Positions 10,441 through 64,000 of a stretch of DNA of 64,000 bases are shown one piece after another. Numbering within the stretch: the stretch's first letter is position 1; the number at the start of each line of letters is the position of its first letter. This stretch comes from Patescibacteria group bacterium (GTDB taxonomy: Bacteria; Patescibacteriota; Microgenomatia; UM-FILTER-40-11). Both the position numbers and the translations under genes were made by a program. Where the stretch lies: NCBI GenBank assembly GCA_035530075.1, contig DATKVM010000002.1:24818-88817 (forward strand), written 5' to 3'. The notes below the pieces were generated by a model. The model did no database searches, was not told the origin of the DNA, and saw nothing but the letters and a program-made list of their open reading frames with translations.

Positions 10441-10477
10441 TACTCATTATTATGGTAAAAGTAAGCGGTAAAAGTCA

Positions 10478-11304: not shown

Positions 11305-13281
<1,977 letters not shown>

Positions 13282-13282
13282 C

Positions 13283-19528: not shown

Positions 19529-19881
19529 AAAGAGGCCTTATTTGCCTCAAATTTCTTCCACACTCTTTGAAGTGTTTCCTGGGGAACTATTTTAAGCTCA
19601 ACTTTGGTGAGCATAAAAATAATCTCAGCGGTTAAATACAACCAATCCCCAAACTCGACAACTGAATGCTCACGACAAGTACCCTTAATTTGGTCGTGCT
19701 TAGAGTACAGTTTATTTCCTTTAAACCAAAGCATTGGTATTTCAAAGAGATGTAAAAACCAAGCTTGTATCCGAGGAGATAGTCTACCATTCCAACGATC
19801 AAACTGAGGAATGAACTCTTGGTGAATTTTTTTGAGAGTTATGTTTGGCATCGATCTGTCTATTGACTTGCGTCTATGCAT
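19525..19881 (-). CDS. hypothetical protein, 118 aa
   Basis: ORF with no recognisable motif. The stop overlaps the Nudix stop region and the start abuts the xer stop. Confidence 0.4.
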   Translation of the reverse strand: MHRRKSIDRSMPNITLKKIHQEFIPQFDRWNGRLSPRIQAWFLHLFEIPMLWFKGNKLYSKHDQIKGTCREHSVVEFGDWLYLTAEIIFMLTKVELKIVPQETLQRVWKKFEANKASF

Positions 19882-41966: not shown

Positions 41967-42124
41967 TTCCCTTTTTCTTTGTTGAAAACCTCAAAACGTT
42001 TTTTCTTTGTCCCTTATTTTACCTTCAAGTCGATTTATTGTCAATGAGTAGCGATTGTCTCCTTGTCAAATTGTTCCATTGCTAAAATAATCAACAATGA
42101 AGCCATGAAACAATGAATCAATTT

Positions 42125-43958: not shown

Positions 43959-44021
43959 CCATTTTACTTCCTATTTAGCTTAAATTACAGCTCTTCTCTG
44001 AGATAAGAGGGAGGTTGTTAG

Positions 44022-46076
44022 CTATCCCAAATTCAAATCTCTGGTTTGCAGAATCCAAATCTGTCCTTCCTTATCTATAGCCCACTCTATATCCTGTGGG
44101 GTTTCACCAAACTCAGATCTTAAGCGTTCCGACAGCATAAACAAAGCTTTTGCCTCTGAAGGAGAAAGAATCTTTGGTCCTTTTTGTTCAATTACACGCC
44201 TCTCAGAGCGAGAAAATTTATATCGCTCAACATCCTTCGCTTCTCCCGAAACTATTCCTTCACCTAAGCCTTCATTCGCCTCTATCTCAACTATATCCAG
44301 GTTTTTGGTCTGCACATTCACACCAAAAATCACGCCCGCACACCTGGCTGGAACCATTTCTTGAACAACAACTGCCATTTTGAGTTTCGCAACAAGACTT
44401 GAGTTTTCTTTCAGATACCTCTCGATCTTTAGCGAGAATGCTGAACGGACAACTTCAAGCATTTTCAGAGAAAGAGCTTCTCCAGAAACATTCAAAAAAG
44501 TATCAAACATCCCTGCCATAGAATTCTTACTATCATCTTCTATGGTTACCGAGGAACGAACAGCAAACACCTTACCCGATTTTATGTAATCGGCTAAAAC
44601 TTTATTCACAAGGTCAATCACATCTCTATCAGGATCCTTAAGTTGTTCATAAATCTTCGGAAAATCTTCAATAGAAACAGGGCTAGAAAAACCCAGTTTC
44701 TTAATAATTTCATCAAACGACAAAGTTGTAAGAACCGCTCCATGTGGAACCTGAAAACCCAAAATTTTAAGCTTAGAAAGCCTATCTGCCTTCCCGCCAC
44801 AGAGCTCCACCCCAAGCAAAGATGCATCCCAAAGTGAAACGTATTGTTGAGATTGTGTTCGGGACAAATTGGTCACTCTAACTTTTCCATTAGTAACCAC
44901 AATCTGTGCTTCATCTCCATTCTCAAATTTTTGATTTCCAACAAGAAAAGCCTTATGACCTTTATCAGTTAACACTCTCATCGCATGCTGTGTAGCAGCA
45001 ACCCCAGGATAAAGCACATAGAGTTTATCCTTCCAAACCGCAAGAGCTCCCAAGATGTCATAATTACGATTACTGATTATTTGTTCGCTTATTTTTACAA
45101 TAACTTTCCCAGAAAGCAGATCTTCTGACGGAACCTGTGCGAGTTTGTGAAAATCCTCCACATTCTTGATTACTCTTACAATACCCTTTATCCGCAAATT
45201 CTTGTCGCTCTCTTCTTTTGCCTCTTTCCAGTAATCTGCCACTTCGTTGAAACAAATACCATTCTCGTCTGTTGAAAATTCAACTCTCTGAGAACCATAT
45301 TTTTGAGAAAGTTCATGGACGACTCTGGCTACTTCCGTAATCTCCGAATCAGAAAGCACCTGATCAAACTGCATGTCTACAGGAACTTGAAATAGCTTTG
45401 CCCCAGACTCTTTTGTGGTGCAAAGCATCAAATTCTTTTGCGGTATCTCCTTGCGAATAATGAAGCCTCGATTTTGTTTAAACTCTATCTCATATCTATC
45501 TGCCACCAAAGATTGCACGCCTTCATTAATTCCAAAAACTGCATAAATAGTTACCCTTCCATTTTCTGATATTCCATAACCACCGTAGGGAATCAAAGCA
45601 GAATGGGGATCCTTGTTAAATTTTTCAATGTCCAAAACTGTAGATGGAGGCTCTATCCACCCGCTTATCTGATTTCCATTTACTTCATGATATTTTTGTT
45701 CTATTGCAAACTGGAAAAGGTCTTTTATGGCAGTTGTAACTTTTTCTGGAGTTGTTAAACCAAGAAAGCGGGGCCCTGGAGGATTTTCAAGGCCAGGCAC
45801 TACAAAGGCCCTACGAACTAATGCTGCATGTGAAGCACTTTCTTCAATTACTTTCTTCGCAGCAGCCTCAGCCTCACTAATAAATTCTTGAGGTAATTCT
45901 CTGTGTTTTAAAAAATACTTAAATATGTCTAAGGGAAAAACATATATATTAACTATCCGAGCACGAACTTCCTCTAATTTCTTCCAGCCATCTATCCTTG
46001 GATTTGGAAGTAAATATTCTGATGGTGAGATTAAATTTTTCATAGTAAAAAATAGGTTTGGGTATGATTTCCCCAA
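44022..46076 (-). CDS. PEP-utilising phosphotransferase with permuted domains: partial ATP-grasp half, phosphohistidine swivel domain, then a complete PPDK_N ATP-grasp
   Basis: The C-terminal 260 aa match the PpsA N-terminal ATP-grasp (FAVRSSVTIEDDSKNSMAGMFDTFLNV; PQDIEWAIDKEGQIWILQTRD). The middle PGVAATQHAMRVLTDKGHKAFLVG matches the swivel domain [21 protein letters not shown]. The N-terminal third resembles a second ATP-grasp half. Confidence 0.75.
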   Translation of the reverse strand: MGKSYPNLFFTMKNLISPSEYLLPNPRIDGWKKLEEVRARIVNIYVFPLDIFKYFLKHRELPQEFISEAEAAAKKVIEESASHAALVRRAFVVPGLENPPGPRFLGLTTPEKVTTAIKDLFQFAIEQKYHEVNGNQISGWIEPPSTVLDIEKFNKDPHSALIPYGGYGISENGRVTIYAVFGINEGVQSLVADRYEIEFKQNRGFIIRKEIPQKNLMLCTTKESGAKLFQVPVDMQFDQVLSDSEITEVARVVHELSQKYGSQRVEFSTDENGICFNEVADYWKEAKEESDKNLRIKGIVRVIKNVEDFHKLAQVPSEDLLSGKVIVKISEQIISNRNYDILGALAVWKDKLYVLYPGVAATQHAMRVLTDKGHKAFLVGNQKFENGDEAQIVVTNGKVRVTNLSRTQSQQYVSLWDASLLGVELCGGKADRLSKLKILGFQVPHGAVLTTLSFDEIIKKLGFSSPVSIEDFPKIYEQLKDPDRDVIDLVNKVLADYIKSGKVFAVRSSVTIEDDSKNSMAGMFDTFLNVSGEALSLKMLEVVRSAFSLKIERYLKENSSLVAKLKMAVVVQEMVPARCAGVIFGVNVQTKNLDIVEIEANEGLGEGIVSGEAKDVERYKFSRSERRVIEQKGPKILSPSEAKALFMLSERLRSEFGETPQDIEWAIDKEGQIWILQTRDLNLG

Positions 46077-46216
46077 CTCTATGCCTCAATTTTAATCCAC
46101 GGCCTGTTAATTAGCAATTACTGGAGGCTCAGAATGAACAATCCTCCCCATCTTATCCCTCTCCATGATAATTCTCGATTTTCTTGGGCTTGGGAGGATG
46201 AAGTCAAACTTGAAGT

Positions 46217-46810
46217 CTAAGAATGAGGTTGCGTAAGTTCTATCCCCAAAGAAAGACTCATAATTTCCTCTTTACGTCTAACAAAATATACTTCACATTG
46301 ATCACTCAATGAAAATCTCTCTGGTTCTGAAAAACAATCCTCCATTGATTTCAAAACCTCATCAGTCCTCGGAGAGGTATAAGTGAAATAGTCAAGAATA
46401 ACTCCGCCACCAGGCACTAACAATCTGAAATATTCTTTTAATGCTTCTGGATCGTAATATGCTGCTCCCAAAAAATCGCAAATTAAAGAGAAACTCTTAT
46501 CAGCGAAGGGGACCTTCCTGGCATCTAAATGAATAAACGTCTCTTTATCTACAGGTTTTACTAAGGAAATATCCCCACAAACTAGTTGGTAAGGAGCTCC
46601 TAAGCACTCTGCAAGTCTTCTTTCAAACCCTGCTTTGTTTGCAGAGGGTGATAAGATTCGTATCTTGTTTTCGCCCGATAGAGGCAAAGAAAGCCTTTTA
46701 ATAAACTCAGATAATGCTTGGGTCTCTTCCTCATTTCTTAAACTTTCCCAATTTTCAAGAACTCCACCAGGAGAATATTGCCATATAATGTTTTCTGTTG
46801 CCTTGTCCAT
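46217..46810 (-). CDS. small class-I methyltransferase-fold protein, paralog B, with a captured ychF N-terminus at its C-terminus
   Basis: FADKSFSLICDFLGA...LKEYFRLLVPGGGVILD. The C-terminal IMSLSLGI repeats the YchF start MSLSLGI. Confidence 0.6.
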   Translation of the reverse strand: MDKATENIIWQYSPGGVLENWESLRNEEETQALSEFIKRLSLPLSGENKIRILSPSANKAGFERRLAECLGAPYQLVCGDISLVKPVDKETFIHLDARKVPFADKSFSLICDFLGAAYYDPEALKEYFRLLVPGGGVILDYFTYTSPRTDEVLKSMEDCFSEPERFSLSDQCEVYFVRRKEEIMSLSLGIELTQPHS

Positions 46811-46932
46811 TAATATATTATAGCAAAGTATTTAAAAACTCTTCACTCTTTTTCTTCGGAAGCACTAATTTGAAGTAAAAATCAAAAGTAGGGGCAGTGA
46901 AAAGTGTATCCCAATAGACAGTGACATATGGC
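46237..46932. repeat. direct repeat copy B (about 0.7 kb), lacking the 45-bp palindrome found in copy A
   Basis: See copy A. Here the ychF fragment (atgagtctttctttggggata, reverse strand) is fused to the paralog B reading frame. Confidence 0.8.
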
Positions 46933-46976
46933 AATTATACTTGAATTAAGGCTGAAACGGTAGTTTTCCCAAGTGC

Positions 46977-47459
46977 TTAAGGGGCATCGCTTGAAGTGCA
47001 ATGACGAATAAATTCTTCCTTTGTACTTAAAGTTGTCTTCACTAAACAATCCTTACCATCGCTAGTTGCTTGATAGAAAAAATCTGCTTTAGTGTCCGGA
47101 TCCACGGGAATCTCCTTTAAATAACCTTTTTGCTGAACTTCAATTATACTTGTTGGACACTGTCCGATATCTAAACAAAAACGTCTCGCCTGAGTAGATA
47201 TTTCTTGTACTCCCGCCCTCCTAATTGCATCCCTAGCACTTGATAACTGATTTTTAGGCGAAGTAAAAACTAACATCAAAGAAACTAAGATTCCCAAAAG
47301 GGGTACTCCCAGTCCTATCCCCGTAACCCACCACTTCGCTCTTTTACTCCAGGGGGCAATAAACCACATAACGATAAGCCCAATAAGGAAGGTCGGAACA
47401 AACAAAAGAAGAATAATAGTTACCCAACTACGCCAATCCTGGTACCACTTTTTTCCCAT
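46977..47459 (-). CDS. pseudopilin-like membrane protein (GspG/pilin-type C-terminal domain) with an atypical double-TM N-terminus
   Basis: The C-terminus GYLKEIPVDPDTKADFFYQATSDGKDCLVKTTLST resembles the PxDPWG...Y.Y..DG pseudopilin fold. Two N-terminal TM helices. Confidence 0.4.
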   Translation of the reverse strand: MGKKWYQDWRSWVTIILLLFVPTFLIGLIVMWFIAPWSKRAKWWVTGIGLGVPLLGILVSLMLVFTSPKNQLSSARDAIRRAGVQEISTQARRFCLDIGQCPTSIIEVQQKGYLKEIPVDPDTKADFFYQATSDGKDCLVKTTLSTKEEFIRHCTSSDAP

Positions 47460-47471
47460 AATTCTATTGAA

Positions 47472-47801
47472 TCACCACCAAGGGATAATTGCAAATATGT
47501 CAGGAAATAGTTCTACTAGGGTCATCCAAACGGCAACAAAAATAACCACCCAACCCGCAAGTTTATAAACTTTTAGTTTTTGCTGAAGAAAAAGCCAGGC
47601 CATGCTTAGTAGAAAAAAATTAAAAATTATCAAAAAGGGAAATTTTGACTTTATATTCCATCGTTCGATTAAATATATCACCAAAAGCAAGAGAAAAATT
47701 GTAGACCGACCTAGCAACCTTACAACAATCAAAACTGGATTTTTCGTTTTAGGCCATCTGAATTTCTGGTCTGAATTGTCTCTATTTTCCATATATCTCA
47801 A
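47472..47801 (-). CDS. small membrane protein, 109 aa
   Basis: Three hydrophobic helices. Confidence 0.45.
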   Translation of the reverse strand: MRYMENRDNSDQKFRWPKTKNPVLIVVRLLGRSTIFLLLLVIYLIERWNIKSKFPFLIIFNFFLLSMAWLFLQQKLKVYKLAGWVVIFVAVWMTLVELFPDIFAIIPWW

Positions 47802-47820
47802 CTTCCCATAATACCACTAA

Positions 47821-47850
47821 TAGCTTACTTGAGGCTAAAAGACGAGGCTC
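47821..47850. promoter_or_regulatory. 30-nt conserved motif copy 1 (TAGCTTACTTGAGGCTAAAAGACGAGGCTC), a candidate operator
   Basis: 28 of 30 positions match 48791..48820. On the minus strand it lies just upstream of a TGgTATTAT -10-like box for gene 47472..47801. Confidence 0.45.
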
Positions 47851-47852
47851 GG

Positions 47853-48032
47853 TTACTTTCGTTTATATCCCCAAGGCATTCTGCCAAAACCGTGACCCTT
47901 TTGGTCAATTCGATGGATATTGAAAGATTGGCACTTTGGACATTTCATTTCCACGACTCTTTTACCTGTCCCAAATGGCGCTTCCCAAATATGGCCGCAA
48001 TCCTCACATTTAATTTTTTTAACTCCATTCAT
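47853..48032 (-). CDS. zinc-ribbon mini-protein (59 aa, CxxC-18-CxxC), not in the ORF track
   Basis: MNGVKKIKCEDCGHIWEAPFGTGKRVVEMKCPKCQSFNIHRIDQKGHGFGRMPWGYKRK. A strong GGAGGTGA Shine-Dalgarno sits 7 nt upstream of the ATG. Confidence 0.6.
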   Translation of the reverse strand: MNGVKKIKCEDCGHIWEAPFGTGKRVVEMKCPKCQSFNIHRIDQKGHGFGRMPWGYKRK

Positions 48033-48038
48033 TAACCC

Positions 48039-48320
48039 TCACCTCCCTTTTTCAATCCTAATCGCCTTACCCAAGATAATTGCCCGGGCAATTTTTTTAT
48101 GAGCACTTTCCAAAAGCCGGGCAAAGGTCGGTTGGGAAATTTTCATTTTAGCGGCCGCCTCTTTTTGTTCCAAGCCATCAACTTCATGGAGTTTTAAGGC
48201 TTCAAGCTCATCGGGCAATAAAATCTCCTCTTCAAGTAATCGGAGAGGAACGCCTCGAGGCTTAAAGTAATAAACATTAGGCTTAAAGCGCAAACAGCGT
48301 GGTCTTCTTGGCCTGGGCAT
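48039..48320 (-). CDS. DUF134-type HTH DNA-binding protein (sigma-70 region-4-like helix)
   Basis: RFKPNVYYFKPRGVPL...LEALKLHEVDGLEQKEAAAKMKISQPTFARLLESAHKKIARAI, an HTH of family UPF0251/DUF134. Confidence 0.7.
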   Translation of the reverse strand: MPRPRRPRCLRFKPNVYYFKPRGVPLRLLEEEILLPDELEALKLHEVDGLEQKEAAAKMKISQPTFARLLESAHKKIARAIILGKAIRIEKGR

Positions 48321-48330
48321 ATTTATTAAT

Positions 48331-48573
48331 TTATTTTAATTCTTCTTCTTCCTTCTTAACATCTTCCAGCTCTTCCTCTAAAGCTTTTCGGTATTCGGAA
48401 AGAGCCTGCTTTTGGTCTTCCGTTGTTTGCGGCCAATTCCAGCCGAAATAACGGCCCAATCCTCTTCCGGCACCAAATCTTCTTCTCCAGCCTAAGCCCA
48501 AACCACAAGGCCCAAATCCTCTCCCGGTTCCTGGCCCTTGACCGAGAGGACCAGTTCCATCAAATCCTGACAT
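48331..48573 (-). CDS. Gly-rich small protein with a C-terminal acidic coiled coil, DUF5320-like
   Basis: GFDGTGPLGQGPGTGRGFGPCGLGLGWRRRFGAGRGLGRYFGW followed by EEELEDVKKEEEELK. This class is often paired with DUF134. Confidence 0.55.
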   Translation of the reverse strand: MSGFDGTGPLGQGPGTGRGFGPCGLGLGWRRRFGAGRGLGRYFGWNWPQTTEDQKQALSEYRKALEEELEDVKKEEEELK

Positions 48574-48790
48574 ATTAACCCACCTCCTTTGCTCTCAGTG
48601 TTATGAATATATATTCATTATATCAGGCAACAAAGCTTTGTCAAGCAGTCAATTAAAACTCAAATTATGGCATTATGGAGTGGGCTATCCCCCCCTTTTT
48701 CATCTCTCTTGGTTAATCTTCTGAAGTTAAAAAATATCGATTCCGACTTAAACTATCCCAATTGAAAAGCTTGACATAGTAGGCCAATCA

Positions 48791-48820
48791 TAGCTTACTT
48801 GAAGCTAAAAGACGAGGTTC
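48791..48820. promoter_or_regulatory. 30-nt conserved motif copy 2 (TAGCTTACTTGAAGCTAAAAGACGAGGTTC)
   Basis: It sits about 13 nt upstream of GATATAAT (48831-48838) and the ATG at 48847. That places it over the -35 region of a probably leaderless methyltransferase mRNA. Confidence 0.45.
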
Positions 48821-48846
48821 TCAAGCAAATAAGATATAATTATTTC

Positions 48847-49425
48847 ATGTACACGCTCGATGAATTAAGGAAGGATATTTGCTTTGAAAAAACCTTAAGA
48901 GGCCAAGAGTTTAAATTTTGCAGCACTTGGGGGCTTTTCAGTCCTGAAAGAGTTGACGAGGGAACCGAACTTTTGATAAATCACCTCGATATAAAACCAA
49001 ATGACATATCTCTAGATTTAGGTTGTGGGTATGGGGCTATTGGCTTAACCGTAGCTAAGCTTTCACCTCAAGGAAAGGTTCATTTGGTAGATAAAGATTA
49101 TGTGGCAGTTGAGTATTCAAAGAAAAATGCCCAAGCTAACAAGATTGAAAATTGTGAAATTTACTTAAGTGACGCCTTTGAGAAAGTTCCAGATATTCAA
49201 TTCGATAACATTATTTCTAATTTGCCCGCCAAAGTCAGCAAAGAGCTTTTCTGGATTATCTTCCTAGGGTCAAAAAAGTATTTAAAGCCAGACGGAAAGT
49301 TTTATGTGGTAACTATTTCCGGGCTAAAGGAATTCATTAAAAGAAACTTTAATGAAATTTTTGGCAACTACGAAAAATTAGGGCAAAGTAAAACTTATAC
49401 TGCCGCCGTGGCTATCAACGAGTAA
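48847..49425 (+). CDS. class-I SAM-dependent methyltransferase (small-domain RsmC/RlmG-like). The ATG at 48847 is preferred over the track TTG at 48799.
   Basis: Motif I LDLGCGYGAIGL. Also has an acidic residue in VHLVDKD and an NLPA site in place of NPPF/Y. Confidence 0.7.
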   Translation: MYTLDELRKDICFEKTLRGQEFKFCSTWGLFSPERVDEGTELLINHLDIKPNDISLDLGCGYGAIGLTVAKLSPQGKVHLVDKDYVAVEYSKKNAQANKIENCEIYLSDAFEKVPDIQFDNIISNLPAKVSKELFWIIFLGSKKYLKPDGKFYVVTISGLKEFIKRNFNEIFGNYEKLGQSKTYTAAVAINE

Positions 49426-49747
49426 TCGATTATAGCTTAATAAGAGGCTCACTTTTTTGGAAGAAATCAAGCCCTGGTTTATCCAGAAATTCTAAAATCA
49501 TTTACCTGATTGAGTGAATAAATCCTTCAGCTTCGCTCCACTTCGCTAAGGCAACGACGGCCGTGATTGAGAAACAAAAATCAAGCAATAAGGCTTTAGA
49601 TATTGCAAATTGGATGCTGGGTCCCTTAATTAAAAGTCTAGAACAAAACTAAAACTTTTTGCACCGGAGGCTTATGTTAGGAGCGCAACCAAAAGAAAAA
49701 GCCTCCCTTTCCTTGGGTCAAATAATCCTCGACAATAATCTGAACAA

Positions 49748-50329
49748 CTAATCATTTTTTTTTCGCTTTTTACTCCACTCTTTTATCCTTTCCTGAGGAG
49801 GGATTTTTCTTTTTTTCTGTTCTGTCCTAAATTTGGTTGATTCCATAATCTCTTCTTTCAAAACTTCTAGCGAAGGCAAACCCAAGGCAAATCTTTCTTC
49901 ATCAGTCGTATCAAGACTAACCGGATATTGAATATAACGTTGTTGTTCTTCGTTCCACCTGGATTGAGTTCCATATTTTTGCGGTTCACCAATATGCTTT
50001 AAATAACGGTCCAAGGTGTTGGCGACCATTCTTCCCGATCCAACCACGCCACTCTCAAAAGCTTTTTTGGCGTATTCATGCGCCTGCCAGTAATCTTCAG
50101 GGGTTTCTCCGTGCTGCAAAATTAATGAAAGCTGGTAATAGATCTCCCCATCAGCTTCTTTCAACAAGCCATTAGAAATTAAACCTTGAACTTTCTTTCT
50201 TCTCTCCCAGTCGTGTTGTCGCATTAACTCTTTTGCCTCTTGGTCATTCCAGTCAATATTTATTCTCTCATTCTTATCTTCGTCAAAAAGTCTCTTTAGT
50301 TTTCCTTTTAAAGTAATTCCTGTATCCAT
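49748..50329 (-). CDS. hypothetical protein, paralog of 50355..50924
   Basis: It shares the pattern ...LI.QH....PE...A...A.......G...A...DRY....G..Q.YGTQ with the divergently transcribed neighbour. Confidence 0.5.
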   Translation of the reverse strand: MDTGITLKGKLKRLFDEDKNERINIDWNDQEAKELMRQHDWERRKKVQGLISNGLLKEADGEIYYQLSLILQHGETPEDYWQAHEYAKKAFESGVVGSGRMVANTLDRYLKHIGEPQKYGTQSRWNEEQQRYIQYPVSLDTTDEERFALGLPSLEVLKEEIMESTKFRTEQKKRKIPPQERIKEWSKKRKKND

Positions 50330-54543: not shown

Positions 54544-56004
54544 ATGTCATTGAGAAATAATGGCGAGGATTGGCTCGAAGGATTAACCAACGGCCTGGGT
54601 TTCGGGGCGCGAATTTTGGGGAGAATCGGACCGGTTCGCAAATCTTTCATTAAAGCCTATGACCAGCATATTCGGTCCACTTACGAAAATTTAGCGCGAG
54701 CCTCCGGTCAACCGACACTCGTAGAACAGCGACGGGATATGGCTTTGGCGATTTTGCACACGATGGACCGGGCTGTCACCCGAGACCTTTTAGGACCGGC
54801 GACGCTTAAAGGCACGCTTAACATTATTGCCAGAGAAATTCTCTTTCCCGAAACTAATCAACAGATTAAAGCGGACTTTATCGCTCGAAACGACTGTCTA
54901 CCCCCGGGTTTACTGGTTATTAGCCCGACTAAAGCCTGCAATTTGCATTGTTCTGGTTGCTATGCCGATTCAAATCAGCGAGGGGAAAAACTGGATTGGT
55001 TAACCTTGCAAAGAATCATTGATGAGGCCAAAAAGCTTTGGGGAACAAACTTTTTTGTCATTAGCGGCGGGGAACCTTTTCTATATCAAGACCAAAAAAA
55101 GGGCATCCTGGACTTAGTCGAACGAAATCAGGACGTTTTTTTCCAGCTATTTACTAATGGGACTTTAATTGATGAAGGTGTGGCCCAAAGGCTGGGAAAG
55201 GCTGGCAATGTTACCCCCGGCATCTCCATTGAAGGACTGAAAGAAACTACCAACCGCCGCCGAGGACCGGGAGTTTTTGACAAAGTCGTTAATACAATGG
55301 ATCTTTTAAATCAGGCCCGTGTGCCTTTCGGCGTTTCCATAACCGCTACTAGGGCTAACTTCGGAGAAATTTTATCCGACCAGACCTTGAACTTCTTTTT
55401 TGAAGAAATGGGGGCTTTATACGGCTGGCTGTTTCAATATATGCCTATCGGCCGCACTCCTGACCTTTCCTTAATGCCTACTCCCAAGCAAAGACTTTTC
55501 TTGTTTCAAAGAATGTGGGAAACGGTGAGAAACAAACAGTATTTTTTAGCTGATTTTTGGAACAGCGGAGTTTTAAGCGACGGTTGCATTGCCGCCGGCG
55601 GCCGAGGCGGTTACCTTCATGTCGATTGGAATGGCAATGTCGCTCCCTGCGTCTTTATGCCCTATTCGCCCATAAATATTAAAAATGCTTTTGCCCAAGG
55701 CAAAAACCTAAATGATATTTGGGCGGAGCCTTTTTTTGCCGCTCTCAGAAAATGGCAGCAGGATTACAACCCCGGGTTCAATTCCCCCCAGCCTCATCCT
55801 AACGGCAATCTTTTAAGGCCTTGCCCCATTCGGGACCATTACCGAGAATTTCGCCAGCTTTTGGACCAGTATCAACCTCAGCCAATTGACGAAAATGCCC
55901 GCCAAGCCCTAGAAGACCCCGATTATCAGAAAGGAATGGAAAAGTTTGACCGAAAATGGGCTTCTCTCGTGGACCCAATTTGGAAAAAAGACTATTCTTC
56001 TTAA
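54544..56004 (+). CDS. radical SAM enzyme with a C-terminal SPASM/twitch-like Cys cluster and an unusually long N-terminal extension of about 125 aa
   Basis: The CNLHCSGCY (Cx3Cx2C) motif sits at about residue 130. A SAM-binding GGEP motif (FVISGGEPFLY) is present. C-terminal Cys residues occur in CIAAGG...VAPCVF...LRPCPIRD. Confidence 0.7.
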   Translation: MSLRNNGEDWLEGLTNGLGFGARILGRIGPVRKSFIKAYDQHIRSTYENLARASGQPTLVEQRRDMALAILHTMDRAVTRDLLGPATLKGTLNIIAREILFPETNQQIKADFIARNDCLPPGLLVISPTKACNLHCSGCYADSNQRGEKLDWLTLQRIIDEAKKLWGTNFFVISGGEPFLYQDQKKGILDLVERNQDVFFQLFTNGTLIDEGVAQRLGKAGNVTPGISIEGLKETTNRRRGPGVFDKVVNTMDLLNQARVPFGVSITATRANFGEILSDQTLNFFFEEMGALYGWLFQYMPIGRTPDLSLMPTPKQRLFLFQRMWETVRNKQYFLADFWNSGVLSDGCIAAGGRGGYLHVDWNGNVAPCVFMPYSPINIKNAFAQGKNLNDIWAEPFFAALRKWQQDYNPGFNSPQPHPNGNLLRPCPIRDHYREFRQLLDQYQPQPIDENARQALEDPDYQKGMEKFDRKWASLVDPIWKKDYSS

Positions 56005-58076: not shown

Positions 58077-58985
58077 GTGGTCTTCGTGAAGAAGAGAACT
58101 TGGGCGAGCATCCTCTTGGTTATCGGAACCGTGATTACTCCCCTAGCCATTATTACCCTCTGGCTTAATAGCACCCTTCTTAACACCAATCAATATGTTG
58201 CCACGATCGCCCCTTTAAGCAAAAATCAGGCGATTGCCTCCGACCTGGCCGACAGTCTGGCCAACCGAGTCTTTACTCAAGTGCCAGTTCAGCAGGAAAT
58301 CAGCGCGGCCATACCTGTCAGCTTTCAATTCCTCGCCCCAATTTTGACTCAAGCGCTAAAAAATTTCTTCACCCAGGAAACGGAGGCCCTAATCACCTCC
58401 GATCAATTCAATCAAGTTTGGATTAGCCTAAACCGCTTTGCCCACGAGCAAATCGTGGCTCTTTTAACCGGTCAAGGGGGGGCTTTGGTGACCAAGAACG
58501 GTCAAGTAACCCTCGATCTTCAGGCAATCTTTGACCAGGTTAAGACTCGCCTCTCTCAAAAAGGCATCACTCTTTTTCAAAATGTCACTTTATCTGCGGA
58601 AAACAACCAGGTGGTATTGTTTCAATCGCAATTTTTAGCCCAAGCCCAAAGTTTCATCAGTCTTATCGCCAAGCTCAGGATTATTCTCCCGATTTTGGCA
58701 CTGGCGGCTTTTATTTTCGGAATAATACTTTATTCAAATTATGCCCGAGGATTATTCTGGACAGGAATTGGCTTACTGCTCGTCGGAATTGCTTTAATAA
58801 TTATTATCGCTATCGCCCGCTCCTCTTTCCCGTCTTACACCCCAAATTTATCTCCCACTGCCTCCGCCGCTTTTTATGATACGATTGTCCGCTATCTGCA
58901 AAATGCCGCCTGGATTACAATTACCGTCGGTTTAATCCTGACCCTGGTCTTCTTCTTTATCTCCAGAAGGGAAGCTAAATCTTAA
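58077..58985 (+). CDS. membrane protein, unknown function
   Basis: An N-terminal TM, a soluble middle and two C-terminal TM helices. No motif recognised. Confidence 0.5.
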   Translation: MVFVKKRTWASILLVIGTVITPLAIITLWLNSTLLNTNQYVATIAPLSKNQAIASDLADSLANRVFTQVPVQQEISAAIPVSFQFLAPILTQALKNFFTQETEALITSDQFNQVWISLNRFAHEQIVALLTGQGGALVTKNGQVTLDLQAIFDQVKTRLSQKGITLFQNVTLSAENNQVVLFQSQFLAQAQSFISLIAKLRIILPILALAAFIFGIILYSNYARGLFWTGIGLLLVGIALIIIIAIARSSFPSYTPNLSPTASAAFYDTIVRYLQNAAWITITVGLILTLVFFFISRREAKS

Positions 58986-58996
58986 CGCGAAAAGGT

Positions 58997-59025
58997 CAGA
59001 AACTTTTGGGGAGAGAAAGCAAGGG
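58997..59025. repeat. intergenic repeat family 1, copy A (TCAGAAACTTTTGGGGAGAGAAAGCAAGGG)
   Basis: One of four near-identical 28-30-nt copies; the others are at 59753, 60218 and 60869. Confidence 0.8.
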
Positions 59026-59029
59026 CTTG

Positions 59030-59620
59030 TCAAACCCTTGGGCAGACATCGACAATATCAGAATTTTTCAAAAGAACTGTCTTGTCGGTTGTGTAAATTA
59101 ATCCTTTGTTGGGCTTAATTTCAAAACCCAAATAAACAATTTTTACTTTTCTTTTTTTAAGCTCAGTTACCGCTGGCTGTAAATCAGAATCAGAGCTACA
59201 AAGAATAGCGGTATCAATCTCCTTGCCACAAGCCAAAGAAACCAAATCAACGGCAATTTTAACATCCACTCCTTTTTCCCTAAAGATAACTTTTTTGTGC
59301 CCATTAATGGTTACTGTTTGGCCACGAACATTGCCTGCCATAATAAAAGTAAAGCCTTGTTTTTCCAAATTCGTTCTTAATCTCCGCTGGAAATTAACTA
59401 GTTCCTTTGACTTTTTAAGAGTCTCTTTGTTCTCGTGTAGCCGAGCCCCATAAAAAAACATTTTCGACAATTTATAATCTGAAAGGCGCTTCCCGAAGAG
59501 CTCTTTTAAATTAATCCGAGCAAGATCAATCTTAGCTTCACTAATTTTTCTCGCTTCTAGAACTTCTTCGACTTTGTGAAGAAAATTTTCTCCGTCAATG
59601 AAAAGAAAGGTTTTGGGCAT
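59030..59620 (-). CDS. NYN-domain (LabA/DUF88-like) protein
   Basis: FLFIDGENF...GVDVKIAVDLVSLAC...AILCSSDSDLQPAV, with NYN/PIN-like acidic residues. Confidence 0.7.
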   Translation of the reverse strand: MPKTFLFIDGENFLHKVEEVLEARKISEAKIDLARINLKELFGKRLSDYKLSKMFFYGARLHENKETLKKSKELVNFQRRLRTNLEKQGFTFIMAGNVRGQTVTINGHKKVIFREKGVDVKIAVDLVSLACGKEIDTAILCSSDSDLQPAVTELKKRKVKIVYLGFEIKPNKGLIYTTDKTVLLKNSDIVDVCPRV

Positions 59621-59752
59621 CTCGCCTATTATGCCACAAAAAACCTCGCCGAGCTAGAAGCAAAGGCGAGGCGTTGATAATCCAAATATACCCCACTAAC
59701 AGGCGCCTGTCAAGGACTGAACTGGCACAGTTTGGTATATTTGAAAAATAGG

Positions 59753-59780
59753 GAGAAATTTTTGGGAGAAAAAGCAAGGG
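59753..59780. repeat. intergenic repeat family 1, copy B
   Basis: GAGAAATTTTTGGGAGAAAAAGCAAGGG. Confidence 0.8.
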
Positions 59781-59786
59781 ATTCTT

Positions 59787-60188
59787 TTAGGTTTTGGGTT
59801 GATTTAAAAGTTCGTCGAGAATATGATTTTTTGGCTCTCTTTCGGCATAGTATTCTCGCCAGTTGGGATCAAATTCATCTAAAAGCAGCTTAATCGGTTT
59901 GCCCAATTTAATCGCGTGATGCATTTCGTTTAAAGGGCCATGAGAAACACCAAAAAGCCAAAATTCATCAGCGATTTCCACCAACCTTAAACAAAACTCC
60001 CAGGTTCTCGCTTTCCCGATCGGTCCGCCTTCATATCGGGCAAATGGCAATGCTTGAAAAGGATGAAGAGGACCTTTCCCTTCTTTGGTTACCTCGTCCA
60101 TTTGCTTCTCAACGTCTGAAGGATCCTTAATCAGTCTTGAAGGAACAGCCATGTAAACAAGGTTTGCTTTACTCTCTGGATTAAGCAT
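59787..60188 (-). CDS. DUF4406-like protein (nucleoside 2-deoxyribosyltransferase-like fold)
   Basis: KANLVYMAVPS...LFGVSHGPLNEMHHAIKLGKPI resembles the YLAGP...GT.FE.G.A.A.GKP pattern. Confidence 0.45.
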   Translation of the reverse strand: MLNPESKANLVYMAVPSRLIKDPSDVEKQMDEVTKEGKGPLHPFQALPFARYEGGPIGKARTWEFCLRLVEIADEFWLFGVSHGPLNEMHHAIKLGKPIKLLLDEFDPNWREYYAEREPKNHILDELLNQPKT

Positions 60189-60217
60189 ATTAATAAGTTA
60201 ATCTTACCACAACAAGG

Positions 60218-60247
60218 CCAGAAATTTTTGGGGAGAGAAAGCAAGAG
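60218..60247. repeat. intergenic repeat family 1, copy C
   Basis: CCAGAAATTTTTGGGGAGAGAAAGCAAGAG. Confidence 0.8.
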
Positions 60248-60296
60248 ACTCTCTAGCCTTCGCACTCGACGAGTGTGAAGGCTAACACTTTTTTAA

Positions 60297-60785
60297 TTAA
60301 TCCCGCCCTGTAAACGGAATAGTTCTCCATCCTTTGCCTGTTTCTTCTCTGGCTTGAGCCTCTTTTCCATTCAATAAAGAATGATAACTTTTAACCATAT
60401 TTCCCAGTACCCTTATTGGACTACCCTCTGTGCTGTCTTGATTAAAAGCTACTCCTTGGACAAAACGACCTAAATCCCGAGCGATATCAAACACGTGCCT
60501 TTCTAAATTCGGCGGATAACCAATACAACCAGGGCCAAAGTTTTCTCTTAGATCTACAAAAACTTGTCTTGCAACAAAGCATGAGGCCATAAGTTCATCG
60601 CTAGCTACTCCCGCTAAATCACGAATCTCTAGGCCTGTTTTCAACTTGTTTTGGGGGTCTAACAATTCTTCCATCTCAAAAAAAGCTTCCATACTCCCTT
60701 TGGCCATCTCTTGTGAAAGCCTACCCATGCTCGTGGCAAAGGACTGACTTACCTCTTGAATTTTTGCCTGTTCTATCGTTGTCAT
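60297..60785 (-). CDS. hypothetical protein. The start is reassigned to the ATG at 60785, which has GGAGGTGG 6 nt upstream.
   Basis: The upstream sequence caagagaggaggtggaaaaATG gives MTTIEQAKIQEV. No family recognised. Confidence 0.5.
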   Translation of the reverse strand: MTTIEQAKIQEVSQSFATSMGRLSQEMAKGSMEAFFEMEELLDPQNKLKTGLEIRDLAGVASDELMASCFVARQVFVDLRENFGPGCIGYPPNLERHVFDIARDLGRFVQGVAFNQDSTEGSPIRVLGNMVKSYHSLLNGKEAQAREETGKGWRTIPFTGRD

Positions 60786-60868
60786 TTTTCCACCTCCTCT
60801 CTTGATAAAAATACTGCCCCTTAAGGCAGTTTTGTTGTCATTATAGCATAATCCCACATAGCCCAAAG

Positions 60869-60896
60869 TCAGAAGTTTTTGGGGAGAGAAAACAGG
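60869..60896. repeat. intergenic repeat family 1, copy D
   Basis: TCAGAAGTTTTTGGGGAGAGAAAACAGG. Confidence 0.8.
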
Positions 60897-60953
60897 ATGC
60901 GATTCAAATATACCAAAAGCTAACTTTTTCTTAATCTCAAATTTTTCTTGAAA

Positions 60954-62069
60954 TTAACTTTTGGCAAAGGGTTTATCTTTTGTGTTTCTTGCCAAATATA
61001 CTGAAATCTTATCACAGTAACTTTTTACACACTCAGTATTTTCCAGATCTGAAACTACATAAGTTTGTACAGGTATTCTAATATCTGAAGAATAAAATTC
61101 TTTTCTCCTAATAAGTCTAGAAATAGTGTCTTCTCTCCCGTGGGAAATCCAGTCCATACCCTTTACTCCACTTACTCGAGAAACAACATCCAATGTTCCA
61201 TCAAATTTATGAGTTGTGTATAACTTTGTGGCAAAACTAACAACCGGTGTGAAAATCTTTATAAAACCCGACTCAGATATTTCGGTATTAATTTTCCTGC
61301 TATCACAAAGGTTAAAGACAACTTCTCCACCGCAACCAACTGCAACCCTGGTAAAAAAAATCTTTCCGTATCCTTTTTCTTCTGCAAGCCAATATTTTCC
61401 ACCGTATCCAAATTCCCACCCAATACCCCCAGACACTCCTAGCGGGTTCGCCGCACTAATAATTCCTATTGGTTCAAGCTTAGAATACAACTGGTCCGGA
61501 TAAGATAATTTTTCAAAAACGTCAATTTTCCTCCGCGGATATATCCCCAAGCTAATTATAATGACGTCTTCGCCAGCATCTTCAATTCCAGAAATGAACT
61601 CGTCAAATTCATTAACTATCTCAATCTGCCGCATTTGGGAGACTCTGTCTAACCCCTGCATCAATTGATTTAATTGCCCAAGCACGTAATTCTCTCTCGC
61701 CTCGTCTAAAACGTCTGTTAGCCATACTGTGGGAAACATATTTTTAGCGTTTGCTGTGTAATATGTTTTTGAGACTGAAGAGTCAATTTTTTCGTCCATC
61801 AAAACAACGATTCTTAAATCTGCCGATGACTGATGCAAATTATTAATATCGTTGAGAACCATACTTTCTGAAGCAATTAGTTCAACGTGAATTATCTTTC
61901 CATCCCAAAGGAAAGTCGCAGTATCCAATCTTCCGCTTGTGACACCGTAAGCTTCCTTGAGTGTACAAGATCCCTGGTACGCTTTGTCGAATAATTCCTT
62001 TAACCTAGCTTCGACAATTCCATGAAGTTTCTTGTCCTTCCGGAGTTGTAAAATATCCTCATTCTTCAT
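60954..62069 (-). CDS. hypothetical protein, 371 aa
   Basis: Long ORF with AT-rich composition. No family recognised. Confidence 0.5.
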   Translation of the reverse strand: MKNEDILQLRKDKKLHGIVEARLKELFDKAYQGSCTLKEAYGVTSGRLDTATFLWDGKIIHVELIASESMVLNDINNLHQSSADLRIVVLMDEKIDSSVSKTYYTANAKNMFPTVWLTDVLDEARENYVLGQLNQLMQGLDRVSQMRQIEIVNEFDEFISGIEDAGEDVIIISLGIYPRRKIDVFEKLSYPDQLYSKLEPIGIISAANPLGVSGGIGWEFGYGGKYWLAEEKGYGKIFFTRVAVGCGGEVVFNLCDSRKINTEISESGFIKIFTPVVSFATKLYTTHKFDGTLDVVSRVSGVKGMDWISHGREDTISRLIRRKEFYSSDIRIPVQTYVVSDLENTECVKSYCDKISVYLARNTKDKPFAKS

Positions 62070-62104
62070 TAACTAATTTTATCACTACAACCCAAATCCA
62101 TGCG

Positions 62105-62163
62105 TAAGAATCTTTGGGGGCTATGGTTGGGGAATTATGGGGTATGGAGTTTCTGCTTTTTCT
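62105..62163. repeat. intergenic repeat family 2, copy E
   Basis: TAAGAATCTTTGGGGGCTATGGTTGGGGAATTATGGGGTATGGAGTTTCTGCTTTTTCT. Confidence 0.8.
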
Positions 62164-63100
62164 AAATGAGGACTACTTCCTTGGGCCCAAAATCAGTGTA
62201 ACTTTTGACTGTCTTTCCCACCTGGAGTCGAGGGTCGCTTTGGTAAAGAGCTAAGATTTCGGCAAAAGAGCTGTCATCTTCTCTCGAGGTTAAAGTAGCA
62301 ATTTTGTCAATCAATTCCAGTTCACTTTTGGCCAGTACGGACAAATCTTTAAAATGTTTATCCATAAATTTCGTGTAGTCCCAAGGCAGAAGTTCAATTT
62401 TATTCAAGGCTGCTAAATCACGGAAGACGCTTCCCCTCATAAACCAAAATCCCTGAACCAAAGTCTCGTTTATGCCAAATAAGTTAGCGTCCATCTTCCC
62501 CGCCCGGCAAATGTTCCAAGCTTTTCCAGATGGCATAAATTGATCTCTCGTTAAATCTAGCGGATTAATTGTTATCCTATACGTTTCAATCTCTTCCTTA
62601 CCCACCTCCGGATCAACTAAAATCCATTGCTTTTTTATCCCATCCCAATACTCACAAACCCAATGATCCCAAAAGTAGCCAGGAAGAAAGTAAGTCGCAA
62701 AACCACTGCGAAGGCGGGCAGGAACACTTTTTTGCCTTAAAAACGAACAAAGCAGTAAAGCAAAATCGCGACAAGTGCCAACAAACCTTTTTTTCGGTGA
62801 TCGAGTCTTAGCCAACGGAGAATCATCCAGTTCGATAATTCTAGCCAAAATTTCTTCAATATACCGAGTATTTGATTCAAGGATCCTATCTCTAGACAGC
62901 TTAAAACCATAGAGATCTTCGGTATTATTTTTATGGATAATCAGCCCGTGAATCACCTTACATAAATCAGCCACTAAATTAGGTAACTGATTCAACAGCG
63001 GGGCATATCTTCCAGGGTTGGTCACCGAGCTTTGGGTTGAATAATATTTTTGGGGACTAACTGGCTTTTTCATTAATATCATTATAGCTGACAAAGCCAA
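62162..63100 (-). CDS. transglutaminase-like cysteine protease superfamily protein
   Basis: Cys in GTCRDFALLL, His in DHWVCEYW and Asp in ILVDPE form a C-H-D triad with core spacing. Confidence 0.6.
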   Translation of the reverse strand: MALSAIMILMKKPVSPQKYYSTQSSVTNPGRYAPLLNQLPNLVADLCKVIHGLIIHKNNTEDLYGFKLSRDRILESNTRYIEEILARIIELDDSPLAKTRSPKKRFVGTCRDFALLLCSFLRQKSVPARLRSGFATYFLPGYFWDHWVCEYWDGIKKQWILVDPEVGKEEIETYRITINPLDLTRDQFMPSGKAWNICRAGKMDANLFGINETLVQGFWFMRGSVFRDLAALNKIELLPWDYTKFMDKHFKDLSVLAKSELELIDKIATLTSREDDSSFAEILALYQSDPRLQVGKTVKSYTDFGPKEVVLI

Positions 63101-63168
63101 ATTTTATGTCTAAGAAAATTTTGAGGCTATGGGGAAGAAATTATGGAATGAGGTTTTTACTTTTTCTT
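63096..63168. repeat. intergenic repeat family 2, copy F
   Basis: CCAAATTTTATGTCTAAGAAAATTTTGAGGCTATGGGGAAGAAATTATGGAATGAGGTTTTTACTTTTTCTT. Confidence 0.8.
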
Positions 63169-63618
63169 GGTGAGCTTGATGTTGCCGACTTCTGTCATCC
63201 CTTCTTGCTCAAAGCCCAAGCTCTCGTAAAACTTTGTCAGCCAAGGCTCTTTGGGACTGTGGGTAACGGAAAAGTATTGATATTCCGGCGGATAATCCTG
63301 CTTTAAGGCAAACTCAACTAATCTTTCGCCTATCCCCTGCCGGCGAAACTCTTCTTTGACGAATAGTTCATCAAGAAAGATTGAATTGGGAAAGTGAGGA
63401 TGAGTTTTGTCCAACAGCCGGACCAGAAGATAGCCAACTGATTTTGAGTCAGATAAAGCCACGAAGAGAAGCTTCTCTTCCAAGGCCAACTTTAGTTTTA
63501 CCCCTTCTTCCTTGGCCTCATTTTTTGAAAGTTGTCGGCCATAGTAAGCCTGAAGCTCAAGCATCAGCTGATAAATTTCCTCTAGCTGTTCCAAAACCGC
63601 AACTTTAATCTCAACCAT
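63157..63618 (-). CDS. GNAT-family N-acetyltransferase
   Basis: EFRRQGIGERLVEFAL is an acetyl-CoA-binding motif A (Q/RxxGxG/A). Confidence 0.8.
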   Translation of the reverse strand: MVEIKVAVLEQLEEIYQLMLELQAYYGRQLSKNEAKEEGVKLKLALEEKLLFVALSDSKSVGYLLVRLLDKTHPHFPNSIFLDELFVKEEFRRQGIGERLVEFALKQDYPPEYQYFSVTHSPKEPWLTKFYESLGFEQEGMTEVGNIKLTKKK

Positions 63619-63640
63619 AAGGAAATTGTATCCTATCGAG

Positions 63641-63711
63641 CCAAATTTTGTGTAGGATTTTTGGGGGCTATGTTTGGGGAATTATGGGTTAGGAAGTTTT
63701 TGCTTTTTCTT
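63641..63711. repeat. intergenic repeat family 2, copy G
   Basis: CCAAATTTTGTGTAGGATTTTTGGGGGCTATGTTTGGGGAATTATGGGTTAGGAAGTTTTTGCTTTTTCTT. Confidence 0.8.
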
Positions 63712-63999
63712 CCTGTACTTGGCGTAAAGGAAACCAGAGAGGACGATAAAGGGAATAGCGGTAACAATATACCAAAAAGTCATGTCGCTAAGGTCTTTAA
63801 TTCTATTTGAAATGTAAAATTGCCAGATAAAAAGATATGGAAGCGGCGTAACGACTGAAACTAAAATATACGGCAAGAACTTCATTTTGGTTAAACCAAA
63901 GCCGTAAGAAATAAAGTCAAGCAGATTTCCCTGAAAAAGGCGGAGCAGGATCAGGCTTTTAATTCCGTGTTCTTTGGTAAACTCATCAACCTTATCCAT
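63682..63999 (-). CDS. membrane protein, DedA/SNARE-associated-like C-terminal region. The Met at 63999 may be internal, and the gene may continue past the window end.
   Basis: Three TM helices and a K-rich C-terminus. The ATG falls exactly at the window edge. Confidence 0.4.
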   Translation of the reverse strand: MDKVDEFTKEHGIKSLILLRLFQGNLLDFISYGFGLTKMKFLPYILVSVVTPLPYLFIWQFYISNRIKDLSDMTFWYIVTAIPFIVLSGFLYAKYRKKKQKLPNP

Positions 64000-64000
64000 A

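Follow-up and report, generated by a model that had tools for sequence, protein, structure and literature searches.

Within the 64,000-nucleotide stretch of Patescibacteria DNA analysed here (the window; contig DATKVM010000002.1, positions 24,818 to 88,817), seven minus-strand genes lie in a row and are separated from one another by short repeats of two families, designated family 1 and family 2. We hold, with moderate confidence, that this row is a hypervariable cassette array in which the junctions are conserved promoter modules and the invariant cores of those modules are crossover points. The repeats are conserved between genomes, they keep a fixed orientation and position relative to the genes, and breakpoints between related arrays fall inside the core. 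According to the mechanism that we propose, two classes of promoter module would head the individual genes of a lineage-specific array on a chromosome of the Patescibacteria (Candidate Phyla Radiation, CPR). Transcripts would probably start at the ATG or a few bases before it, which would make many of the cassette mRNAs leaderless, and the cores would act as the points of cassette deletion, insertion and exchange because every junction carries the same core. An initial annotation of this DNA had offered three interpretations of the repeats: the boundaries of a cassette array assembled by a recombinase, a shared promoter or leader, and a family of repetitive extragenic palindromic (REP)-like elements. 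What it observed is confirmed, whilst its interpretation as a whole is partly supported; the first two ideas are not exclusive of one another and the evidence fits both together.

Organisation of the array and its repeats

Listing of the open reading frames (ORFs) in the region bears out the seven co-oriented minus-strand genes. We examined this genome over 73.6 kb, that is, the window and 9.6 kb past its end, and the array (locus L084, the genome's own array region) reaches beyond the window: the DedA/VTT gene, whose 3′ part lies inside (63682–64000; Pfam VTT/DedA), encodes 220 amino acids (aa) in full and has a second NYN gene, NYN1, upstream of it. In the sense direction the order is NYN1, VTT, family 2, GNAT, family 2, transglutaminase-like gene, family 2, 371-aa gene, family 1, 162-aa gene, family 1, 133-aa gene, family 1, NYN2, family 1 and finally a convergent gene. 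Within the window the other cassette genes, all on the minus strand, are a GNAT acetyltransferase (63157–63618; Pfam GNAT), a transglutaminase-like gene (62162–63082, with the called start at 63082; Pfam Transglut_core, E = 8e-6), a rare orphan of 371 aa with no Pfam family (60954–62069), a 162-aa gene of no family (60297–60785), a 133-aa gene (59787–60188) and, as the last cassette, the 196-aa NYN/LabA-like gene NYN2 (59030–59620; Pfam NYN, E = 1.9e-16). The NYN, transglutaminase-like, GNAT and DedA labels first given to these genes hold up in Pfam, but the label DUF4406-like does not, the only match of the 133-aa protein being a sub-threshold one to DUF7768 (E = 0.007). The convergent gene (58077–58985, plus strand) encodes a 302-aa membrane protein and closes the array without being a cassette; a homologue closes the L095 array region too.

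As the remainder of the window is made up of genes for gyrase, DnaB, ribosomal proteins, HisRS, RF and the like, the locus is chromosomal. The cargo had been described as AT-rich, and its GC content of 0.40–0.42 is indeed below the 0.44–0.45 or so found over most of the window, but the difference is modest and the region from 42 to 50 kb is equally low.

Repeat finding confirms four copies of family 1 (58991–59024, 59746–59779, 60213–60246 and 60864–60897) and three of family 2 (62107–62163, 63113–63169 and 63654–63710), all seven in the sense orientation of the minus-strand genes and all within 4.7 kb of the 73.6 kb examined. They stand at the junctions as described, but the length of 28–73 nt originally assigned to them is too short: the family-1 module measures about 50–68 nt and comprises a 28-nt core, CCCTTGCTTTCTCTCCCCAAAAATTTCT, and a promoter part, and the family-2 module measures about 100 nt and extends to the next ATG. 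The family-1 cores, again on the minus strand, are copy A (CCCTTGCTTTCTCTCCCCAAAAGTTTCT, 58998–59025; module match 58972–59034), copy B (CCCTTGCTTTTTCTCCCAAAAATTTCT, 59754–59780; module match 59739–59788), which is the most degenerate, copy C (CTCTTGCTTTCTCTCCCCAAAAATTTCT, 60220–60247; module match 60190–60256) and copy D (TCCTGTTTTCTCTCCCCAAAAACTTCT, 60871–60897; module match 60841–60906). The family-2 modules, on the same strand, lie at 62071–62174 between the transglutaminase-like and 371-aa genes, at 63080–63178 between the GNAT and transglutaminase-like genes and at 63620–63719 between the DedA/VTT and GNAT genes.

Copy A was rightly singled out as an exception. It is terminal, following the NYN stop with no co-oriented gene downstream, and it adjoins the stop codon of the convergent plus-strand gene, whose last codons (AKS*) are overlapped by its promoter-like part, TTAAGATTTAGCT. 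These codons are kept in L095 too, but there they lie some 65 nt past a degenerate family-1 core instead of adjoining it. Family 2 likewise overlaps coding sequence, as first reported, its 5′ end running over the upstream stops of the VTT (...KKKQKLPNP*), GNAT (...TKKK*) and transglutaminase-like (...VLI*) genes.

A separate observation concerns this same 5′ end: its sense-strand sequence, AAGAAAAAGCAA, matches in reverse complement the first half of the family-1 core from the 5′ side, TTGCTTT(C/T)TCT (window 63700–63713 against 59764–59777). It is kept in most family-2 copies, and read-through from the upstream gene encodes the tail KKKQKL(P/H)NP, on VTT here and on GNAT in L094.

In the 73.6 kb of this genome examined, the motifs are confined to this locus, only array copies being present. 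Motif searches allowing up to three mismatches returned nothing but the known copies from the 64-kb window, with none expected in shuffled sequence; the family-2 motif found two of the three copies, the third coming from repeat finding and the nhmmer profile. Profiles built from the copies score the seven at E = 1e-7 to 1e-29, and no other match, whether in the remainder of the window or in the 9.6 kb past its end, falls below E = 0.3. The shared 9-mer, CCCCAAAAA, was considered as a general genomic signal and rejected for want of enrichment (8 occurrences window-wide against 5.2 expected).

In 23 ungapped copies most core positions are 95–100% conserved (range 69–100%); synonymous sites of the backbone genes are saturated. 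Such strict conservation suggests that a single trans-acting factor recognises the core and gives the cassettes common regulation. The core usually starts 0–20 nt past the upstream stop (24 of 35 copies), although this distance ranges from -30 to 557 nt.

Promoter anatomy of the junctions

The anatomy of the modules was tabulated from 36 family-1 copies and about ten family-2 copies. In 20 of the 36 family-1 copies the core is followed at 9–13 nt by an extended -10 box (TGnTAnnnT, usually in the form TGGTAAGAT or TGTTAGAAT), against a background of 1.3% at random positions of the same loci, so that TGn and the TAnnnT hexamer of a sigma-70 extended -10 promoter occupy a fixed place in these elements. 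Its forms are TGnTAAGAT or TAGAAT, followed by a TTAGCTA discriminator. The core-to-ATG distance is 22–28 nt in 15 of the 36, which puts the -10 box 6–7 nt before the ATG, and the ATGs at this distance are independently called gene starts. Family 2 reaches the same geometry by another route: its consensus over about ten copies is AAGAAAAAGCAAAAACTCCATAACCCCATAATTCCCCAAACATAGCCCCCAAAAATTCTTACACA-N18-TA(C/A/T)AAT, in which three C-run/A-tract units at 14-nt spacing are followed by a -35-like TACACA, an 18-nt spacer and a -10 box 6–7 nt before the ATG. As far as can be judged from sequence, this anatomy supports the initial proposal of a shared promoter or leader.

Leaderless geometry, meaning a -10 box that ends 5–8 nt before the start codon with no Shine–Dalgarno sequence between the two, is seen at the GNAT, 371-aa and NYN2 genes. 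In the family-2 modules the putative boxes are TACAAT for GNAT (within TACACA-18-TACAAT, 63654–63625), 6 nt before the ATG, and TAAAAT (62076–62081) for the 371-aa gene, also 6 nt before the ATG. The transglutaminase-like gene conforms as well, TATAAT (63081–63086) standing 7 nt before an ATG at 63073, as against the called start at 63082, and so does VTT just past the window. The 162-aa gene is the exception, with a leader of about 50 nt and a strong Shine–Dalgarno sequence. A leadered variant at position 4604 of L094 retains TGGTAAGATTTAGCTA and continues into a short untranslated region with AAGGAGG, which is the layout expected if transcription starts just after TTAGCT.

A tRNA-Leu gene carries a TGGTAAAAT box 7 nt upstream; the -10 part of the module would therefore be the ordinary promoter element of this organism, and the core the special part. 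By geometry the core covers about -52 to -25. The idea that it supplies a sigma-70 -35 box is not supported, as its TTGCTT is 32 nt away from the -10 box and CAAAAA occupies the -35 position.

Cassette turnover in related genomes

Relatives were reached by two routes, via neighbouring site-2 protease homologues with 76–80% protein identity (L093, L094 and L095) and via NYN homologues (L135, which extends L093, and L132, L133 and L134, which represent one further genome). Their backbone consists of a small gene, PrsW, a ~200-aa gene, M50 and AI-2E. The backbone proteins of the present genome are about 79% identical to those of L093/L135 and L094, yet the same repeat elements are present. Both families occur in the relatives (at least four genomes), sense-oriented and between co-oriented small genes, and the same modules stand between different genes in different genomes; the adjoining housekeeping DNA of the relatives has no element of either family. 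L135 carries ten or eleven family-1 copies and one family-2 copy in 12 kb, the L132/L133/L134 genome three and two, respectively, and L095 one degenerate copy of each, and elements are also found on the short contigs L106, L108, L114, L119, L120 and L126. The core upstream of NYN has an orthologous copy in L135 and L132 and a degenerate, low-confidence one in L095, and the NYN2 orthologues of L135 and L132 (88% aa identity) also have family-1 cores on both sides.

A metagenome scan with TTTCTCTCCCCAAAANNTTCT returned 35 loci, of which six to eight are true members, with at most four copies per 1–6-kb contig. Matches to a degenerate family-1 pattern in GTDB species representatives (83 in all), a set without the source genome, were set aside: the seven inspected were all single with flanks unlike the element, and at no locus did the pattern match more than once. 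Neither family's motif was found in viral contigs, and there is thus no sign of a phage origin. In all four genomes that have both families, family-2 copies come before family-1 copies without interleaving, as expected if exchange needs family-specific homology.

Comparison of the arrays, which the initial annotation had thought might expose the movement of cassettes, does reveal their gain, loss and swapping at the junctions. In all-against-all blastn comparisons, homology blocks start at core positions +1 to +2 and end at +28 to +30. L106 and L108 share 99.6% identity over 728 nt to the 3′ end of a core and are unrelated from there on, an Exo_endo_phos gene following the shared core in L106 and a NUDIX gene in L108. 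The converse is seen with L106 and L126, which are 99.6% identical from core position +2 onward and differ upstream. Over larger distances, the core-bounded 133-aa and NYN cassettes of the window match L135 at about 90% and 83% (about 90–92% nucleotide identity for the 133-aa orthologue), and between the two L135 carries HIT and a 247-aa gene. L132 has HIT and then NYN without the 247-aa gene, and in L120 the 247-aa gene is followed by a core and a PfkB kinase gene. The GNAT cassette here comes after VTT and before the transglutaminase-like gene; in L094 its neighbours are a 141-aa gene on the upstream side and a UvrD-like helicase on the downstream side.

Array genes also appear younger than their surroundings. 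Synonymous divergence (dS) is 0.30 for the 133-aa gene (L135), 0.66 for GNAT (L094), 0.87 for NYN2 and 0.89 for a 64-aa gene (described below), and 1.4–3.1 for the backbone genes M50, PrsW and AI-2E in the same genome pairs. The arrays are reproduced by independent assemblies and are therefore not chimeras; several contigs terminate in a core or near one, which is what strain differences at these points would produce, and the array reading accounts for the breaks that assemblies of these organisms show at this locus.

We propose that cassettes would most likely be exchanged between strains and related species by homologous recombination, with the cores as short stretches of identity and DNA uptake as one possible occasion. 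Homologous exchange is favoured because the elements lack the symmetry of recombinase sites, because there is no linked recombinase and because the two families are never interleaved.

Weighing the explanations

Several observations count against a promoter array that recombines through its cores. No TTGACA-like -35 box is present in the core region. In 16 of the 36 family-1 copies the -10 box is missing at the standard distance and the core is still kept, and the cores upstream of NYN precede a separate TTGACA-17-TATATT promoter. Three arrays (this window, L119 and L120) end in a core that faces a convergent gene, which a pure promoter model would not lead one to expect. Conservation that is nearly uniform over 26–28 nt is not what is usually seen at an activator or UP-type site, and a recombinase site would account for it just as well. 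The low dS of short cassette genes could partly reflect codon selection or sampling noise, and a length of 28 nt is close to the lower limit for RecA-type exchange.

The most serious alternative, which we regard as possible but doubtful, is that the 28-nt core and its family-2 counterpart are sites for a site-specific recombinase encoded elsewhere, the cassettes moving as integron-like units that carry a promoter along with them. Much of the above would suit it: breakpoints fall inside the core in every comparison, conservation is almost uniform across the 28 nt, the cassettes are younger than the backbone by dS, and the cores persist where the adjacent -10 box is displaced. The three arrays with a terminal core would end as integron arrays end with attC, and ORFs enter family 2 at different positions, unrelated proteins sharing the tail KKKQKL(P/H)NP*. 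What tells against such a recombinase is in the first place the structure of the elements. Inverted-repeat cores, a point that the initial annotation had thought worth checking, are absent, a scan having found no arm pairs within elements, and single-strand DNA folds of four elements on both strands have z between +0.20 and -1.35 with no conserved stem. Searches of Rfam 15 gave two chance-level matches (E = 0.6–0.8, about half the gathering score). Hairpin, attC-like and structured-RNA readings were accordingly rejected, there being no significant fold and no Rfam family.

Nor is there a linked enzyme. At five loci from four genomes (L084, L094, L095, L132 and L135), no domain of an integrase, a resolvase or a transposase is seen by Pfam at less than 10 kb from an array. 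The only recombinase seen in the window is a 320-aa tyrosine recombinase (19881–20843, minus strand; Phage_int_SAM_1 and Phage_integrase), a point in favour of the alternative, but it sits 38 kb from the array among housekeeping genes (YebC, TGT and gyrase) and is probably an ordinary Xer-type enzyme. The constant spacing of core and -10 box speaks for a role in transcription instead, and families 1 and 2 never interleave. Of the recombinase-assembled array first suggested, then, the cassette part is supported, with insertions, deletions and swaps that break inside the 28-nt core and low dS, whilst the recombinase part is without a domain within 10 kb or a hairpin.

A bolder variant, to which we give a similarly low probability, is that the cores are the attachment sites of an undescribed CPR gene-capture system, built on a 28-nt site that has neither symmetry nor structure and is joined to a leaderless promoter. 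It would work in an integron-like manner with captured genes arriving ready for expression, and the recombining agent would be either an unlinked candidate recombinase or a dedicated pathway that is guided by homology and coupled to DNA uptake. Literature searches on CPR leaderless promoters, cassette arrays or integrons found nothing relevant, which, the search being limited, is weak evidence of novelty.

It is unlikely that the elements are a shared regulatory region only, that is, the operator and promoter of a regulon, with ordinary indels that end at repeats in appearance alone. The promoter anatomy would be explained, and since the DNA between genes is nearly all module (24 of 35 cores lie 0–20 nt from a stop), any indel between genes would map near a core. 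This does not account for pairs of strains that are 99.6% identical and switch to unrelated sequence exactly at the core boundary, for cassette dS of 0.3–0.9 against a saturated backbone, for contigs of other assemblies that break at or close to cores, or for terminal cores that have no gene to regulate.

Slightly less likely again is an RNA-level role, in which the core would be a 3′ element of the upstream gene: a Rho loading site, the tail of a terminator or a processing site, for example for the array's NYN nucleases. In most copies the core lies 0–20 nt past the upstream stop and the terminal copies follow the last gene; the sense strand is extremely C-rich and G-poor, with one G in 28 nt in family 1 and about 60 nt that are poor in G in family 2; and NYN genes turn up repeatedly in the arrays. 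At the end of the window array there is a terminator-like hairpin, CAAGGGTTTGACAAGCCCTTG, then CTTTCTCTCC (59020–59040, minus strand), which includes the first bases of core A. Core A forms its 3′ half and CUUUCUCUCC follows, so that the core completes a candidate terminator, and some copies in relatives follow a palindrome (L094 and L114). Against this, no consistent structure or Rfam match is found. An intrinsic terminator is not present at each junction, a hairpin lying near only copy A and the junction upstream of core C; the orthologous junction of L135 has the same NYN C-terminus and no hairpin, and most junctions in the relatives are likewise without one. Rho loading needs composition, not a near-invariant 28-mer, and NYN/LabA genes are common across CPR genomes, many lineages having them at about 60% identity (for NYN genes compared alone). 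The distance from stop to core is loose and that from core to -10 box tight; the core thus keeps its register relative to the -10 box instead of the stop codon, which makes a 3′ role less likely.

The third idea of the initial annotation, that of REP-like repeats, here extended to bacterial interspersed mosaic elements (BIMEs) and miniature inverted-repeat transposable elements (MITEs) accumulated by chance, fits their being short, intergenic and in several copies but is rejected as highly improbable given the lack of a palindrome, fold or terminal inverted repeats, the single orientation relative to genes of all 36 family-1 and about ten family-2 copies, their restriction to one locus in 73.6 kb and to the array part of each locus in relatives, and their fixed register with -10 boxes and start codons.

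A promoter array whose cores double as crossover points would have some wider significance. CPR bacteria have very small genomes, which are thought to leave little room for accessory functions. The locus would offer a compact alternative, a single chromosomal site with a changing set of small housekeeping-type enzymes (NUDIX, HIT, GNAT, nucleases and kinases), each cassette having the same ready-made promoter whose core doubles as an exchange point between strains and species. If confirmed, this would provide a defined promoter and a probable regulator site for an uncultured lineage as well as a marker sequence with which to find flexible genes in its metagenomes, and transcription signal and recombination substrate would be one and the same sequence.

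Comparison with known systems

The closest parallels are integrons and CALINs, clusters of attC sites without an integron-integrase (PMC4889954). Here too, co-oriented, unrelated and mostly small genes are each followed by a member of a repeat family, with a terminal repeat at the end; some ORFs end inside the repeat, content differs between close relatives with breakpoints in the repeat, as in the definition of a cassette array, and there is no adjacent integrase, as in a CALIN. The attC sites, however, are poorly conserved in sequence and are imperfect palindromes that fold, with R''-L''...L'-R' boxes, an unpaired central spacer and extrahelical bases (PMC4889954), whereas the elements described here are asymmetric, unstructured and near-invariant and do not fold in this way. 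Integron cassettes are mostly promoterless and expressed from Pc (PMC4889954), whereas each junction here carries its own promoter-like module. A complete integron would also have an adjoining IntI tyrosine recombinase; none is seen within 10 kb of the arrays, but a CALIN does not need one.

Short asymmetric repeats in one orientation relative to transcription, in short gaps by gene starts, are also known from the stoperators of Cluster A mycobacteriophages (PMC9283540, PMC6550527) and the start-associated sequences of Cluster K (PMC3203893). A single trans-acting reader is thought or has been shown to act on these phage sites, a further likeness to the factor suggested by our cores. They are, however, 13 nt long and spread genome-wide without cassette turnover, whereas the elements here are 28–100 nt, are fused to a -10 box, occupy one chromosomal locus and mark recombination breakpoints.

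Three other systems are similar in part. The pneumococcal blp bacteriocin/immunity region is a row of units with the same conserved promoter that is mosaic between strains, with exchange in the conserved intergenic parts. Its promoters bear recognisable direct-repeat boxes read by a known response regulator that the locus itself encodes, and its cargo is functionally related, whereas the cargo here consists of unrelated housekeeping-type enzymes, many of the units look leaderless and no regulator has been identified. On Acinetobacter plasmids, the pdif modules are genes between 28-nt XerC/D sites that occur in various contexts with the recombinase encoded elsewhere, and here, too, gene modules are bounded by 28-nt conserved sites. 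The pdif sites are 11-6-11 imperfect palindromes in alternating orientation, however, whereas in our core neither of the corresponding arms, CTTGCTTTCTC and AAAAATTTCTG, is an inverted copy of the other, a TTATG/CATAA dyad is lacking and every copy is in direct orientation. Phage morons, finally, resemble the cassettes in that each inserted gene is a transcription unit of its own between its neighbours. They are autonomous promoter-gene-terminator insertions with no common junction sequence and no arrays that shuffle at one.

Other features of the locus

Further candidate promoter elements are found on the minus strand of the family-1 junctions. A TAAGAT -10 box with a preceding TGG, hence extended, lies at 60201–60206, 13 nt past core C and 12 nt before the ATG. 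The stretch between core B and the NYN start (59621–59735) is a unit in its own right. It has the TTGACA-17-TATATT promoter (59713–59685), then about 45 nt ending in the hairpin CCTCGCC...GGCGAGG with T6 (59665–59644), and then a putative CATAAT -10 box (59628–59633, in TGGCATAAT) 7 nt before the ATG. The whole unit is kept in L132 (9846–10003) and part of it in L095; in L135 (9881–10000) the sequence retrieved stops at the TTGACA promoter, and most of the unit is visible up to that point. A small RNA and a transcription attenuator are both possible roles for the unit.

Among the cassettes of the window, a long leader (60786–60845) is peculiar to the 162-aa gene. Its presumed promoter is TATAAT (TGCTATAAT, 60840–60845), 25 nt past core D, and is followed by a terminator-like hairpin, ACTGCC..GGCAGT with ATTTTTAT (60830–60813), which may be an attenuator, and by a strong ribosome-binding site, GAGGAGGTGG. 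Across the window, by a crude ORF-based count, about 20 of 76 long ORFs have a TAnnnT hexamer 5–8 nt before the first start codon and few have a clear Shine–Dalgarno sequence; outside the array, too, this organism may often rely on leaderless translation.

With regard to the cargo, the 371-aa orphan has eight homologues besides itself among 5.8 billion proteins, with 40–46% identity, and the three contexts looked up consist of unrelated genes without the repeats. It is of no use as a synteny anchor and is consistent with foreign cargo. An NCBIfam search of the cassette proteins added nothing specific. The locus was also considered as a defence island and this was rejected, PADLOC giving only generic NYN/HEC-09 matches for the NYN proteins and none for the other cassette genes; the convergent gene has one marginal match (PDC-S14, E = 0.0019). 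A G-quadruplex in the antisense G-runs of family 2 was likewise rejected, as the runs are not kept in the copy at 63113–63169.

The region of low GC content at 42000–50000 of the window (0.38–0.40) contains several small unannotated genes and a PPDK_N-domain protein, and has no family-1 or family-2 element. In L084, about 11 kb (4381–15622, or window position ~57997 to past 64000) separate PrsW from a ~200-aa PRK-like gene, and this insert includes an RRM protein, a radical SAM gene, NYN1 and the entire repeat array; L094 and L095 differ in having the ~200-aa gene and M50 directly after PrsW. A radical SAM/SPASM gene between M50 and the AI-2E transporter (54544–56004, plus strand) is found in this genome only, and in L119 (769–1302) the terminal family-1 core adjoins the 3′ end of a radical SAM/SPASM homologue (69% nucleotide identity). 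The two assemblies L132 and L134 of the same relative are 99.7% identical from position ~3299 onward and wholly different upstream, with PrsW in L134 and three reverse-strand genes in L132; this second rearrangement point near the array coincides with no family-1 or family-2 element.

The 64-aa gene mentioned above encodes a coiled-coil-like protein and is found in four genomes, at 81–87% nucleotide identity and always just upstream of the family-2 sub-array (L084 7181–7561, just past the window end; L094 494–823; L132 4347–4541; L095 2873–3067). In this genome and L094 it is preceded by a degenerate family-2-like sequence, and it may be either the first cassette or a conserved head of the array.

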